Assembly: GCA_031549925.1 (NCBI GenBank)
Contig: JAVBPA010000033.1
Location: forward strand, 13,498-77,497
Length of the DNA stretch: 64,000 nt
Source: Eubacteriales bacterium
GTDB taxonomy: Bacteria > Bacillota > Clostridia > Oscillospirales > CAG-272
Direction: 5' to 3'
The notes under the pieces are model-generated. The model was not told the origin of the DNA, ran no database searches, and saw only the letters and a program-made list of their open reading frames with translations. Below are positions 10,948-16,850 of this stretch, piece by piece (the first letter of the stretch is position 1; every line of letters starts with the position of its first letter). The position numbers and the translations under genes are program-made.

Positions 10948-12762
10948 ATGAAAAAACTTATTTCTTATGAAAACAGTAAAATAACATCGGGATTTTGGGA
11001 AAAGAAGCAAAGACTAGTCCGTGATGTGTCATTAAAAGCAGTATATGACCGTTTTAGCGAAACCGGGCGTTTCCGTGCTTTTGACTTTTCATGGAAAGAA
11101 GGAGAACCGGATAGGCCGCACATTTTTTGGGATTCGGATGTGGCAAAGTGGCTGGAAAGCGCGGCTTATGTTTTGAATGGAGAAAAAAATCCGGAAATCG
11201 AAGCTGTTTGTGATAGTATCATAGAGAAAATCGCCGCTCATCAGGAAAAAAACGGATATTTTAATATATATTTTACCGTCGTTGAACCGGAGGCTCGTTT
11301 TACGCGCCGTACAGATCATGAATTGTATTGCGCGGGGCATCTTATCGAAGCGGCTGTCGAATATTATAAAGTTACGGGTAAAAAACTTTTTCTTGACTGC
11401 ATGTGTAAATATGCGGATTATATCGAAAAAATTTTTAAAATTAAAGGAAATAAATATTTTTCAACTCCCGGACATGAAGAAATCGAATTGGCTCTTGTAA
11501 AACTCCATGATATAACGGGGGAAATGCGGTATCTTGAACTTGCTAAATTCTTTATTGATAAAAGAGGATGCGAAGAAGAAGCAAATTACGGCTGGGCTCA
11601 AGCTTCATATAATCAAAGTCACCTTCCTTGCCGCGAACAAAAAACCGCAGAAGGACATTCTGTACGGGCAGTTTATCTGTACAGCGGAATGGCTGACATA
11701 GCTTATAAATACGGAGACGAAGCTTTAAAACAAGCTTGCCGTGATTTATTTGAAAATATAATTAATAAAAGAATGTATATCACCGGAGGTATAGGTTCAA
11801 CCCGAGTGGGAGAAGCTTTTACTATAGATTACGATCTTCCCCCGGCGACAGCTTATACCGAAAGCTGCGCATCGATAGGACTTGCGTTGTTTGCACGCCG
11901 TATGCAGCTGCTTTATACGGATTCGGTTTATGCGGAAATCATTGAAAAAATAATATACAATGGATTTTTGTCGTCAATATCACTGGACGGTAAATCATTC
12001 TTTTACGAAAATCCGCTGGAGATATTACCGGAATTGCACAAGGTACGCGGTGAAATCCATTATCCGTCGTCTAGACGCTCAGAGGTTTTTGATTGTTCCT
12101 GCTGTCCTCCGAATATAACGAGATTCATGGCTTCTGTTGCGGATTTTCTTTATACGGCTGACGATGAAAATAATACTGTTTATCTCCATCAATTCATGAA
12201 CAGCGATACAAAATTTATTCTTTGCGATAAAGAAGTGAAAATATCTCAGAAAACATCATATCCGGAAAACGGAATTGTGAAAATAAATTACAGCGGACCC
12301 GAAGCGGTTTTAGCCGTAAGAATTCCCAGTTGGTCAAACCGTTATGAAGCGTTCAAAAATCCGGATGGCTATGCTTATTTTAATGTTTTTGACGGTTTTG
12401 AATTTGAGTTTGATTTCGCCCCTCAGGTGCGTTTTATCGAGGCTGATCCGCGTGTAACAGGCTGCGAAAACCGTTGCGCGGTTTCATACGGTCCGGTTAT
12501 ATATTGCATGGAGGGAATAGACAATATATCTCCTTTGCGGGATATAAGGCTTGATAGTGATATACCATGCGAATTTGAATATAATAATTCGCTTGATGTA
12601 CAAACATTATGTTTTACGGCATACCGGCGTAAATTTGAAACAAATAAATTATATTCTTTAAATAAATTACCCCTTGAAACAATAAAAGCCCGGATGATAC
12701 CATATTATTCTTTTGCAAACAGAGATTACAGCGAAATGGTTGTATGGTGTTTGACCAGATAA
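10948..12762 (+). CDS. GH127 beta-L-arabinofuranosidase-like glycosidase
   Basis: DSDVAKWLE, HELYCAGHLIEA, GHEEIELAL, GHSVRA, YTESCAS, CSCCPPN (Zn/Cys catalytic set of GH127). Confidence 0.92.
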   Translation: MKKLISYENSKITSGFWEKKQRLVRDVSLKAVYDRFSETGRFRAFDFSWKEGEPDRPHIFWDSDVAKWLESAAYVLNGEKNPEIEAVCDSIIEKIAAHQEKNGYFNIYFTVVEPEARFTRRTDHELYCAGHLIEAAVEYYKVTGKKLFLDCMCKYADYIEKIFKIKGNKYFSTPGHEEIELALVKLHDITGEMRYLELAKFFIDKRGCEEEANYGWAQASYNQSHLPCREQKTAEGHSVRAVYLYSGMADIAYKYGDEALKQACRDLFENIINKRMYITGGIGSTRVGEAFTIDYDLPPATAYTESCASIGLALFARRMQLLYTDSVYAEIIEKIIYNGFLSSISLDGKSFFYENPLEILPELHKVRGEIHYPSSRRSEVFDCSCCPPNITRFMASVADFLYTADDENNTVYLHQFMNSDTKFILCDKEVKISQKTSYPENGIVKINYSGPEAVLAVRIPSWSNRYEAFKNPDGYAYFNVFDGFEFEFDFAPQVRFIEADPRVTGCENRCAVSYGPVIYCMEGIDNISPLRDIRLDSDIPCEFEYNNSLDVQTLCFTAYRRKFETNKLYSLNKLPLETIKARMIPYYSFANRDYSEMVVWCLTR

Positions 12763-12790: not shown

Positions 12791-13132
12791 ATGAAAAAGA
12801 AAAAAAGATCTTCGGACGAAGATGACGACGGACGTGTTATTGCCAATATGGATGTCGAAGGAATGCCTTGGAATTCACAGGGAATGTCCTGGCGTTTCGG
12901 ATTGAACGGTTTTATAAAAAAACAAAAAAATAAAAAATCAGATTCGGCAGATTTAAAAGATAATTATGGAGCGGAAATTGATAAAAACATTTCCGCTCCG
13001 CCTCCGTTAAGCAAAAGAGAAACTTTATTTATTATCTTTCATTCTGTTTTATCCGGATTGACTGTTGCTGCAATATTCGGAACCGCAGGGTTTTTGTTTA
13101 TACTGTTTTGTGTGAAGGTTTGGTTTGTATGA
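12791..13132 (+). CDS. Hypothetical membrane protein
   Basis: DDDGRVIANMDVEGMPW N-terminus and one C-terminal TM helix. Confidence 0.7.
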   Translation: MKKKKRSSDEDDDGRVIANMDVEGMPWNSQGMSWRFGLNGFIKKQKNKKSDSADLKDNYGAEIDKNISAPPPLSKRETLFIIFHSVLSGLTVAAIFGTAGFLFILFCVKVWFV

Positions 13133-13587
13133 AATCCGGTATAATTTTTATAATTTCAGTTTTATTAATATTTATTGTATTATTGGGTTCCGTAATATTT
13201 TTAATAGCATATAATTATGATTTTAATACTTATGAACTTGATGTTATAAATGGTATAGCTTACGGAATCGAAAACGACTGCGTATATATTAAATTAAATG
13301 AACATAATAAAAAGTTAAGTAGCTTCGAATCGGAATCAATCAGAGGGATATTAACCATTACTGAAAGAAAAAAAACTTCTCTTCCGCATAAATTAAATGA
13401 ATCCCGGCTGCCTGATATAATCTTTGAAATCGAAGAGATTATGAATGTCAGAATCATAAAAAATGATAAAAATACCGACAGTGTTTATATGGTTGCAAAA
13501 GTATACGGAAAAGAAAGGGTTTTCTTAATAAACGATTACAGAATATATGAAAGAGCGGAAGAATTCTTTTTTTCACAAAATAATTGA
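13129..13587 (+). CDS. Hypothetical protein with N-terminal membrane anchor
   Basis: ATGA overlap with the upstream stop; hydrophobic N-terminus. Confidence 0.65.
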   Translation: MKSGIIFIISVLLIFIVLLGSVIFLIAYNYDFNTYELDVINGIAYGIENDCVYIKLNEHNKKLSSFESESIRGILTITERKKTSLPHKLNESRLPDIIFEIEEIMNVRIIKNDKNTDSVYMVAKVYGKERVFLINDYRIYERAEEFFFSQNN

Positions 13588-14261: not shown

Positions 14262-15659
14262 ATGATTAATATTTATTCAACTAAACATATGATTAAACCA
14301 ACGTTTTGCAGAGGTGAAATACCTTCTACAAAAGAAGCTTATAAAAATTTAGCGAGAATTGCGCTGCCTTCTGTCGCAGAAATGGTTTTGGCTAGCTTAA
14401 TAGGTTCGGTTGATACAATGATGGTGGGCAATTTAGGAGCTTCCGCTATTGCCTCCGTAGGCTTGACGGGACAACCGAGAATGCTTTTGTTATCGATATT
14501 TTTTGCGATAAATATGGGGCTTACCGCGGTTATATCAAGAAGAAAAGGCGAAGAAAGACGCGAAGACGCCCAATCCACGCTCCGCTATATGATGGTGATT
14601 ATTTTTATAATATCCATCGTTATCAGTATCGCAGCTTTAATTTTTACCGAACCGCTGATGAAATTATCGGGTGCGATACCAGGCGAAACTTTAGAGGGGT
14701 CTATAATATATTTTCGTATAATGATTATATCGGTTCCGATAAACGCTCTTACAATGTCAGTAACAGCTTCCCTCAGGGGTATTGGAAATACTAAAGTTAC
14801 GATGTATGTAAATACGATTTCTAATATTATAAATATAATTTGTAATTTTTTATTGATTGAAGGAAGATTCGGATTTCCCAGACTTGAACTGGCGGGAGCG
14901 GCGCTGGCATCTGTTATCGGAATGGCTGTCGGTTTTATTTTATGTATTGTTGTTATATTCAATAAAGATTGTTATTTATACATATCTCCGAAAAATTCCT
15001 GGATTCCTAAAATAGATAAAGTACGTCCTGTTTTAAAAGTCGGAGGAAACGCTGTCTTAGAACAAATCGCACTTAGGATAGGATTTTTTATATTTGCCAA
15101 AATGGTAGCCGGACTTGGAACCGATAATTTCGCGACTCATCAAATTTGCATGCAATTTTTAAATATTACGTTTACTATAGGAGACGGAATCGGAGTTGCT
15201 GCGACTAGTCTGGTGGGTCAAAACATGGGAAGAGAACGGCCGGATGTTTCAATGATATACGGTAAAGTTGCCCAGCGTGCGGCTTTAACGATTTCCCTTG
15301 TCCTGGTTGCTGTAATTATTGCGTTCCGTGTTCCTTTTATAAAATTATTCAATAATGAACCGCATATTGTAGAACTCGGTTCACAGGTTATGATAATTGT
15401 CGCGCTGTTCCAGCCTTTTCAAACTTCGTCTGTCGTTATATCAGGCTGCCTGCGCGGGAGCGGAGACACTAAATATGTCGCCCTTATCATGCTAATCTGT
15501 ATAACATTTATACGTCCATTTGTATGTTATATGAATTTAAATGTTTTCAATTTGGGACTTGTCGGCGCTTGGGCTGCCTCTATGTTAGATATGATTATAA
15601 GAATGGTTGCGGTTTATACACGTTTTGCCAGTTTTAAATGGGCTAACATAAAAGTATAA
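14262..15659 (+). CDS. MATE family efflux transporter
   Basis: IALPS, VDTMMVG.LG, LRGIGNTK, FPRLELAGAALAS, LVGQNMG, LRGSGDT; about 12 TM helices. Confidence 0.92.
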   Translation: MINIYSTKHMIKPTFCRGEIPSTKEAYKNLARIALPSVAEMVLASLIGSVDTMMVGNLGASAIASVGLTGQPRMLLLSIFFAINMGLTAVISRRKGEERREDAQSTLRYMMVIIFIISIVISIAALIFTEPLMKLSGAIPGETLEGSIIYFRIMIISVPINALTMSVTASLRGIGNTKVTMYVNTISNIINIICNFLLIEGRFGFPRLELAGAALASVIGMAVGFILCIVVIFNKDCYLYISPKNSWIPKIDKVRPVLKVGGNAVLEQIALRIGFFIFAKMVAGLGTDNFATHQICMQFLNITFTIGDGIGVAATSLVGQNMGRERPDVSMIYGKVAQRAALTISLVLVAVIIAFRVPFIKLFNNEPHIVELGSQVMIIVALFQPFQTSSVVISGCLRGSGDTKYVALIMLICITFIRPFVCYMNLNVFNLGLVGAWAASMLDMIIRMVAVYTRFASFKWANIKV

Positions 15660-15737: not shown

Positions 15738-15766
15738 TTGATTTTTATTATATAATATGTTATAAT
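15738..15766 (+). promoter_or_regulatory. sigmaA promoter (copy 1)
   Basis: TTGATT-17 bp-TATAAT with TG extended -10. Confidence 0.7.
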
Positions 15767-15793
15767 AATATTGATATTTTGGAGGTGGTATAT

Positions 15794-15922
15794 ATGTATA
15801 CGACAGTTATCATTACGAGCAGAATTGCAGCCGCGCAAACTGCCGATATATTTTCATTAACAATCGTTTTATTGGCAATTGCTGCCGCTGTTGTTTCCGT
15901 ATTACTAAAAAAAAATAAATAA
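15794..15922 (+). CDS. Unannotated 42-aa membrane microprotein made of a QTAD sorting signal (MYTTVIITSRIAAAQTADIFSLTIVLLAIAAAVVSVLLKKNK)
   Basis: GGAGGTG RBS at 15781-15787, ATG 15794, TAA 15920-15922, own promoter, clear similarity to the C-terminus of 16001-16783. Confidence 0.8.
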   Translation: MYTTVIITSRIAAAQTADIFSLTIVLLAIAAAVVSVLLKKNK

Positions 15923-15937
15923 ATTATAAATATTCTA

Positions 15938-15966
15938 TTGATTTTTTTTATATGTTATGTTATAAT
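15938..15966 (+). promoter_or_regulatory. sigmaA promoter (copy 2)
   Basis: TTGATT-17 bp-TATAAT with TG extended -10, exactly 200 bp after copy 1. Confidence 0.7.
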
Positions 15967-16000: not shown

Positions 16001-16783
16001 ATGAAAAAAGCAATTAGTCTTTTAACCGTTGCAATAATGGTAATATTTACTTTCGCATTGACAGTATCAGCAGCTGGTCCGGCAGTAATTTGGGATTTCA
16101 CAGACAGCGCAAACGCTCTTATTTACAATGCGGACGGCACTTATCTCGGTTCCGGCACACCTAATAATATCAACCTTGCTTATGATGCAACAGAAAAATG
16201 TATCAAAGGTGAAATTATCGGAGGCGACCCTTACTTCCAGATGCCTTTAATAGATCCTACATTACAGGCAGAAAGCAATGCATTTATAAAAGTAAGTTAT
16301 AAAATATTGGGCGCTACATCCCCGGCATGTTCATTCTATTTTACAACTGATACAATATCCTGGTCAGAAGATGGTTCAATGCAATGGGCAATAGACGGCG
16401 ATGACGAACAATGGACAGAACAAATTGTCGATATGTCCGGTTCCGCAGGTTGGGCAGGTCTCGTTGATAAACTCCGTTATGACCCGCTTTCACAAGGTGA
16501 AGACGGACAAGTTATCTACATTAAGTACATAGCAATATTTGCTTCTGAAGCAGATGCAACCGCATTTGATTTCACAGCATACAAAACACCGGCAGCAGCA
16601 GAAACAACAGCTCCCGCAGAAACAACAGCAGCTGTTGAAACAGAAGCAGCAGACACAGCAGCAAATACAACAGCTCCGGCAACAACACCGGCAGTTCAAA
16701 CAGCGGATATATTCACAGTTTCCATAATTGTTCTTTCTATGGCTTCCGCAGCAGGCGTTGTATTAACAAAGAAATCCAAATAA
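16001..16783 (+). CDS. Secreted cell-surface protein with Thr/Ala/Pro linker and C-terminal AVQTAD sorting signal
   Basis: Signal peptide ending VSA; aromatic-rich globular domain; AAETTA/PAETTA repeats; AVQTADIF-TM-KKSK tail. Confidence 0.85.
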   Translation: MKKAISLLTVAIMVIFTFALTVSAAGPAVIWDFTDSANALIYNADGTYLGSGTPNNINLAYDATEKCIKGEIIGGDPYFQMPLIDPTLQAESNAFIKVSYKILGATSPACSFYFTTDTISWSEDGSMQWAIDGDDEQWTEQIVDMSGSAGWAGLVDKLRYDPLSQGEDGQVIYIKYIAIFASEADATAFDFTAYKTPAAAETTAPAETTAAVETEAADTAANTTAPATTPAVQTADIFTVSIIVLSMASAAGVVLTKKSK

Positions 16784-16815: not shown

Positions 16816-16850
16816 AAAGCATGGATCGTAAAAATCCATGCTTTTTTATT
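16816..16850. terminator. Bidirectional terminator
   Basis: AAAGCATGGAT...ATCCATGCTTTTTT between convergent genes. Confidence 0.8.

Follow-up and report, generated by a model that had tools for sequence, protein, structure and literature searches.

The DNA analysed here, referred to as the window, is a stretch of 64,000 nucleotides that corresponds to bases 13498-77497 of contig C102 in a genome of 2.65 Mb (termed G000; 129 contigs, 89.9% complete). The G+C content of the window is 35.7%. Its forward strand carries, one after the other, a gene for a MATE efflux transporter, a 42-codon open reading frame (ORF) whose product we call the microprotein, and a gene for a 260-amino-acid surface protein. 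The genes and elements of this locus, given by their positions in the window, are as follows.

14262-15659, + strand: gene for a MATE efflux transporter (TIGR00797, 279.6 bits; PF01554).
15738-15766, + strand: promoter P1 of the microprotein gene (TTGATT, 17 nt, TATAAT, with a TG extension).
15781-15787, + strand: ribosome binding site (RBS) GGAGGTG, 6 nt upstream of the microprotein ATG.
15794-15922, + strand: microprotein gene, 42 codons plus TAA, encoding a product of 42 amino acids.
15830-15847, + strand: residues 13-18 of the microprotein, AAQTAD, a copy of the sorting motif of the genome.
15848-15907, + strand: residues 19-38, a hydrophobic helix of 20 residues that is the best-conserved segment of the microprotein family.
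15908-15919, + strand: residues 39-42, the basic tail KKNK, predicted to be cytoplasmic.
15938-15966, + strand: promoter P2 of the 260-amino-acid surface-protein gene, a near copy of P1.
16001-16783, + strand: gene for the 260-amino-acid surface protein, with a signal peptide, a predicted CBM-like β-sandwich, a linker rich in Thr, Ala, Pro and Glu, and a sorting signal.
16688-16780, + strand: residues 230-260 of the surface protein, its sorting signal, to which the microprotein is probably related as offspring or sibling.
16816-16844, two-way: terminator-like hairpin, the sole convincing one downstream of the microprotein and surface-protein genes.

The sequence-only reading of this DNA had proposed that an unannotated ORF of 42 codons is present here, equipped with a strong RBS and a promoter of its own. 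The ORF and both signals are indeed found at these positions, and the ATG lies 134 nt downstream of the MATE stop codon. The term 'unannotated' applies only loosely, as an identical protein of 42 amino acids already resides in the protein collection (P0001) and homologues are recorded as 'hypothetical protein' in NCBI MAG records. No match near threshold was obtained with Rfam over the microprotein locus, and the predicted fold of the mRNA leader is unexceptional (z -0.54).

The promoter of the microprotein gene has a close counterpart in front of the surface-protein gene. The 42-nt block that holds P1 (15725-15766) and the block that holds P2 (15925-15966) are identical at 37 of 42 positions. 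Promoters of the strict P1 type occur at three sites genome-wide, namely before the microprotein ORF, before the gene for the 260-amino-acid protein and before the gene for a 279-amino-acid paralogue on contig C37. A looser form, TATTGA-N16-17-TGTTATAAT, is present at 22 sites in G000 (for example on contigs C2, C12, C44, C55 and C76), several of which directly precede sequences that have the appearance of tRNAs. Because of this number of sites and the location of several before tRNA-like sequence, we consider the looser form to be a strong housekeeping promoter type of the organism, and the microprotein gene is among those that use it. A search for a terminator-like site between the microprotein ORF and the surface-protein gene yielded none.

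Transcript assemblies that match the locus are available from an invertebrate-gut metatranscriptome (X2, one RNA run). Contig depths there are 6.7 for the MATE gene, 522 for the surface-protein gene (16011-16704) and 9.7 for the downstream ABC gene, values that derive from assembled contigs and are unfit to rank genes or gauge expression. No X2 contig spans 15685-16010, a gap that in contig data carries no information on the microprotein ORF. The contig over 16011-16704 comes from another strain, because four letters differ.

The resemblance that first drew attention to the microprotein is that to the C-terminus of the protein encoded next to it. Over residues 10-42 the peptide is 48% identical to the tail of the 260-amino-acid protein, and the codons for the shared QTAD differ between the two genes at synonymous sites, as the sequence-only reading had described. 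To place this likeness in the context of the genome, all open frames of G000 were scanned by composition, and 18 were found to end in a hydrophobic run followed by a basic tail. The motif (A/P)(A/V/P)QTxD stands directly before the helix in 10 of the 18, that is, in nine long proteins and in the microprotein, and LPXTG occurs in none of them. In an alignment of 14 tails (A2), the Q, T and D are invariant and each of the two preceding positions is Ala in at least 90%. As judged from these sequences, AAQTxD followed by a membrane helix of 20 residues and a Lys tail is a general C-terminal signal of G000, carried by about 11 secreted proteins. The proposal that the microprotein has the tripartite build of a sorting signal is thus borne out by the genome-wide scan for QTxD-helix-basic tails, since its motif, membrane helix and basic tail are put together in the same way as those of the nine long proteins. 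A profile built from the tails matches 12 frames in G000 (the microprotein included), up to 32 in genome G087 and 26 in genome G166; the signal is therefore much expanded in g88, the genus of these two genomes.

When the microprotein is held against the parts that make up a sortase substrate, it has some of them and lacks others. The Thr-containing recognition motif before the helix is there, with AAQTAD at residues 13-18 as on the nine long proteins, and so is a helix followed by at least two C-terminal basic residues (20 residues, then KKNK). A Sec signal peptide is absent, as the motif Gln is preceded by only 14 residues, in which there is a single Arg but no extended hydrophobic core, and no room is left for a passenger domain in a protein of 42 amino acids. 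Cleavage of the N-terminal tail by signal peptidase was considered and seems unlikely; the small residues before the Gln are the AA of the motif itself, and the length of the hydrophobic stretch is insufficient. Curated anchor models fail to recognize the peptide, which has no match in Pfam and whose sole NCBIfam match, Loki-CTERM, scores 15.6 bits and falls below the cut-off of 19.9 bits.

The sequence-only reading had also raised the matter of which sortase is present. G000 encodes two sortases, both of class B (TIGR03064, 183.2 and 156.6 bits with a cut-off of 153.75), on contigs C7 and C21, and class B is the sole sortase class in this genome. The LPXTG anchor family PF00746 was found nowhere in G000. 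An exosortase was considered as the processing enzyme and set aside, since none was found in the 89.9%-complete genome. Orthologues of the C7-type sortase, full-length and with 36-57% identity, are present in 13 sampled genomes, and the catalytic residues His243, Cys337 and Arg345 are invariant in all 14 sequences. All four of the other genomes that carry the microprotein have such an orthologue (49-57% identity). In a sample of 151 genomes of the family, a sortase is present in each of the 27 genomes with at least three tail matches, compared with 99 of the 151 overall, a co-occurrence that is circumstantial because the genomes are related to one another and sortases are common in the family anyway. 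From this co-occurrence we infer that a class B sortase may be the enzyme that cleaves AAQTxD.

The neighbouring 260-amino-acid protein belongs to no Pfam or NCBIfam family. Its AF2 model (mean pLDDT 70.6, pTM 0.65) has strands over residues 29-180, and the best Foldseek matches of this model are of the CBM4, CBM29 and CBM86 types (E about 1e-5, target-normalized TM 0.61-0.65), so that the domain models as a CBM-like β-sandwich. Several paralogous copies of this domain are encoded in G000, three of them in a row on contig C109 and others on C62 and C37. Orthologues of the protein occur in G087 and G150. No close orthologue was found in the genome-contig collection, and metagenome contigs yielded two distant relatives with 26-27% identity.

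Homologues of the microprotein are few. A search of 5.8 billion proteins with the single peptide returned the peptide itself and nothing else, and an order-level sample of 401 genomes, 25 of them from the family itself, gave no convincing match. A peptide search of 150 other genomes of the family revealed short frames in another genus that are 61% identical to the microprotein, as against 48% for the tail of its neighbour in the window. A profile search for short frames then identified members in five of 401 family genomes: G000, G087, G166, G063 and G150. In the 5.8-billion-protein collection the profile picked up 12 proteins of 42-58 amino acids (from NCBI, ENA, JGI and Logan). When 1.84 billion cluster representatives were searched exhaustively with HMMER, five matches reached E≤0.001, all of 42-46 amino acids and none of them long. 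Scans of 185,579 species genomes confirmed the microprotein in G087, G166 and G063 only. Other short frames that matched the tail or peptide profiles were discarded as out-of-frame chance matches, contig ends or masked stretches. The resulting family comprises 14 sequences of 39-58 amino acids, from G000, four other genomes of the family and metagenome proteins, and is very narrow, being conserved in a few uncultured gut Clostridia. Conservation of the ORF, which the sequence-only reading had left to be checked, is thus documented both in related genomes and in protein collections.

The genomic contexts of these homologues provide further information. In G087 the MATE gene is followed by an ORF of 46 codons and then by a gene for a 248-amino-acid orthologue of the surface protein, and the order of MATE, microprotein and surface-protein genes is thereby kept in a second genus. 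In G166 an orthologous MATE gene likewise lies upstream of the small ORF (47 codons), and the next gene encodes a protein of 72 amino acids with a sorting signal. In G063, which represents a third genus, the gene for a 49-amino-acid homologue stands alone, flanked by rpe and lepA; its promoter is of the same type, and it has an RBS and a terminator. The homologue in G150 has 39 amino acids, lacks both the Gln-Thr and the basic tail, and does not adjoin the surface-protein orthologue of that genome. At all five loci that were examined as DNA the microprotein gene has its own promoter and RBS, purine-rich sites being present upstream of the starts of the orthologues as well, and at none of the five is there a sortase gene beside it. 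The claim that the microprotein is paired with a surface protein that bears a QTAD-type signal holds at three of the five loci and fails at the other two, so that the pairing is not universal. What related genomes have at this position is the small ORF again, and not the full-length paralogue that would have marked the ORF of the window as a deletion remnant.

Two of these genomes also encode other small proteins of note. The 72-amino-acid protein of G166 (L037:1722-1940, on contig C53 of that genome) consists of a signal peptide, a stub of about 20 residues and an APQTED sorting signal, and nothing else; as it has no cargo, both genes of that locus are cargo-less. In G150 (L038:2170-2514, - strand, contig C114), an ORF of 114 codons upstream of the gene for the CBM-like orthologue encodes one membrane helix followed by an extended series of repeats rich in Cys and Asp.

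The pattern of substitutions points to selection at the level of the protein. For the two congeners G087 and G166, the 30-codon core differs by 16.0 changes at 23.2 synonymous sites and by 5.0 changes at 66.8 non-synonymous sites, which corresponds to a dN/dS of 0.04. Between genera the synonymous sites are saturated, and pN is 0.26-0.37. When the DNA of the window is aligned with that of G087 and G166, the promoter block and the core of the ORF are conserved, with changes at third codon positions, and the spacer after the MATE stop codon cannot be aligned. Codon comparison thus demonstrates purifying selection on the microprotein gene in its reading frame, and the protein-level conservation that the sequence-only reading had suspected from the synonymous QTAD codons is upheld on firmer ground. 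We have little doubt that the microprotein gene is a real gene.

Alignment of 13 members defines which parts of the microprotein are under constraint. Residues D18, F20, S21, I24, L27 and A28 are invariant, and Q15, S17 and I25 are conserved at 90% or more. The segment A-Q-T is kept in 10 of the 13. Counted over all 14 members, the motif Thr is retained in 11; its replacements yield Q-S-S-D in two members and G-A-S-D in one, the latter of which also lacks the basic tail. The fourteenth member of the family has H-T-S-D. Because the Thr is replaced in these three sequences, such members at least do not need cleavage by sortase. The distance from the Asp to the first basic residue is exactly 20 residues in all 13 proteins from the collection, and nine of 13 members carry a KKPPRG-like cytoplasmic tail that is absent from ordinary tails. 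The N-terminal stub is the least conserved part and varies in both sequence and length.

The orientation of single-pass membrane proteins can be predicted by the positive-inside rule. The 13 collection proteins have three or four Lys or Arg residues in the C-terminal tail and between none and two in the N-terminal tail. Since the N-terminal tail is short and nearly free of charge of this kind, and the C-terminal tail is rich in Lys and Arg, the microprotein is predicted to insert N-out/C-in without the help of a signal peptide.

We consider it very likely that the microprotein derives from a sorting signal. Over the 22 positions that follow the Asp, pairs of microproteins are identical at 10-18 positions (mean 12.7, 10 pairs), compared with a mean of 6.4 for microproteins paired with 21 tails of long proteins (105 pairs). 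The closest of these long-protein tails are the three neighbour tails, with 9-12 of 22 positions identical. Between G000 and G087, the microproteins share 16 of the 22 positions and the neighbour tails 14, and so the helix of the microprotein is not much more constrained than that of an orthologous anchor.

How the microprotein of the window relates to the other members was addressed with a tree of 38 tails and microproteins over 30 columns. Ten microproteins group together in this tree (SH-aLRT 92), and the peptide of the window has no firm place, lying near tails of the neighbour type. One clade that unites all 13 microproteins is not rejected (p-AU 0.38 with a quick tree and 0.23 with a careful one), but the tree does not recover it. 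The window's peptide shows its highest identity, 67%, to the microprotein of G087. Based on this identity and on the conserved position we favour the view that the microprotein of the window is orthologous to those of genus g88, although an independent origin, or conversion by the tail of the neighbour, is possible.

Taken together, these features hint that the microprotein may be a helper or regulator of cell-surface anchoring of a kind that has not been described. The explanation that we find best overall, with a probability of roughly one in two, is that it is a membrane microprotein that arose from a duplicated sorting signal and mimics this signal towards the class B sortase pathway. The functional part of the proposal, action on the sortase pathway, stands at odds of even or slightly below. 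According to this model, the C-terminal sorting signal of the neighbouring CBM-like surface protein would have been duplicated to give a stand-alone single-pass membrane microprotein. The product would insert N-out/C-in without a signal peptide, and its motif would be exposed on the outside of the membrane, just where a translocated sortase substrate has it. Because conservation extends over the motif, the helix and the cytoplasmic tail but not over the N-terminal stub, function would lie in the part that is retained in the membrane. As a mimic of a sorting signal, the microprotein could engage the class B sortase pathway as a pseudo-substrate or as a regulator of sortase. Alternatively, it could serve as a ready-made 'cleaved anchor peptide', like those that signal sortase activity in streptococci.

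The main rival explanation holds that the microprotein is a real small membrane protein whose function has nothing to do with sortase, for instance as an accessory subunit within the MATE transporter or some other membrane complex, and that its sorting-signal shape is a relic of its origin. We regard this as rather unlikely, though deserving serious weight. It would account for the order of MATE gene and small ORF that is kept in G087 and G166, for the loss of the motif Thr in three of 14 members, and for the conservation of the helix together with the family-specific KKPPRG-like tail (nine of 13), features that ordinary sorting signals do not need. What it leaves unexplained is why A-Q-T-(A/S)-D should be kept in 10 of 13 members despite lying outside the helix. 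A role tied to the MATE transporter in particular fits poorly with the strong promoter that the microprotein gene has for itself, 134 nt from the MATE stop codon, and with G063, where the gene lies between rpe and lepA and has no MATE gene beside it.

It is improbable that the microprotein is simply a minimal sortase substrate. The 'minimal wall-anchored peptide' that the sequence-only reading had listed among the possible roles is disfavoured on the same grounds, namely that the stub, which is the part that would become attached to the wall, shows the weakest conservation, both of sequence and of length, and the part that would be discarded is the most conserved. The missing Thr in three of 14 members points in the same direction, even though the motif, helix and tail are complete in the microprotein, N-out insertion is predicted, and the 72-amino-acid protein that adjoins the microprotein in G166 indicates that cargo-poor substrates exist at this locus.

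Less probable still is a non-functional remnant, left open by chance after tandem duplication of the surface-protein gene and an internal deletion. Both the promoter and the tail are duplicated beside the presumed parent gene, as this history would predict, and the failure of the first single-peptide search to find a homologue seemed to agree with it. Nonetheless, the reading as a remnant is largely refuted by conservation: the short ORF with its RBS and promoter is conserved in three genera and recurs among metagenome proteins, the dN/dS is 0.04, and stand-alone copies are located away from any parent gene.

Type I toxin-like peptides are about 40 amino acids long with one helix and a basic end, and the microprotein has this size and shape, but a toxin-like or pore-forming hydrophobic peptide is a very remote prospect given the constitutive promoter of consensus strength and the strong RBS, the lack of a convincing antisense promoter (the sole minus-strand site inside the ORF scores 9/12), the lack of an Rfam match over threshold or a special leader fold (z -0.54), and the conserved chromosomal position of a single-copy gene.

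A mimic of the sorting signal, which we prefer to these alternatives, can be compared with several systems that have been characterized. Two papers give NPQTN or NPXTG as the motifs of class B sortases and (S/P)PXTG as the motif in Clostridioides difficile (PMC4155245, PMC11987632). Class B sorting signals and the microprotein have a common build, consisting of a short motif that contains Thr, a hydrophobic helix and a basic tail. Between NPQTN and AAQTxD, however, the Gln-Thr is common and nothing else; AAQTxD has neither the Asn and Pro nor the Gly of the class B signals, and no Pfam or NCBIfam anchor model matches it. A sortase substrate, as defined in these papers, has a signal peptide and a passenger, and the microprotein has neither.

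SafA is a small membrane protein of Actinobacteria that binds the housekeeping sortase and protects it; it is encoded directly downstream of the sortase gene and does its work through an exoplasmic FPW motif (PMC9282373). Like the microprotein, SafA is a conserved small membrane protein with a single pass, and it acts on the sortase pathway, as we propose for the microprotein. It differs in that the microprotein has no FPW, is encoded on contig C102 with the sortases on C7 and C21, and resembles the tail of a substrate.

A second parallel is found in Streptococcus gordonii, where anchor peptides of LPXTG adhesins that are retained in the membrane (C-peptides) are reported to be sensed by the histidine kinase SGO_1180 and in this way carry information on sortase activity (PMC11326707). 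A membrane-retained remnant of a sorting signal of this kind has its counterpart in the conserved half of the microprotein. The C-peptides are by-products of the processing of full-length adhesins, whereas the microprotein is a signal with a gene of its own. The ESM Atlas contains a cluster of proteins of 44 amino acids, 88% of them with PF00746 (score 0.85); short entries of this 'LPXTG anchor only' kind are a weak lead, since the score is under 0.9 and they may be fragments of genes. Neither a stand-alone gene for a sorting signal nor a signal of the AAQTxD type came up in a full-text literature search. What would be new in the present case is that a sorting signal has become a separate gene.

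A broader form of the proposal, which we put forward tentatively and consider doubtful as a whole, would combine all of these elements. The independent, strongly expressed gene for a signal without cargo would be older than the split of several genera and would encode a dedicated part of the sortase pathway, either a pseudo-substrate that tunes the class B sortase or an anchor remnant that feeds a feedback circuit in the membrane. AAQTxD, for its part, would represent a class B sortase signal of a new type, which up to about 30 proteins per genome would use in this family of uncultured gut Clostridia.

Sortase pathways attract research both as drug targets and as tools for protein engineering. 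To our knowledge, hardly anything has been learned about their regulation in the cell. A conserved gene that consists of a sorting signal only would lend itself naturally to a role as pseudo-substrate or feedback element, of a kind that is undescribed in the full-text literature searched. The AAQTxD motif would also matter in its own right, as an unrecognized sorting motif that no curated model detects, which means that the surface proteomes of these gut fibre-degraders are under-annotated. If the microprotein does derive from a sorting signal, as is very likely, it also illustrates clearly how part of a larger gene can give rise to a microprotein that selection then maintains.

The region upstream of the locus contains another pair of small frames. 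At 12791-13587, between a GH127-like gene (10948-12762) on the 5′ side and the MATE gene on the 3′ side, two overlapping ORFs encode products of 113 and 159 amino acids, each with a hydrophobic segment.
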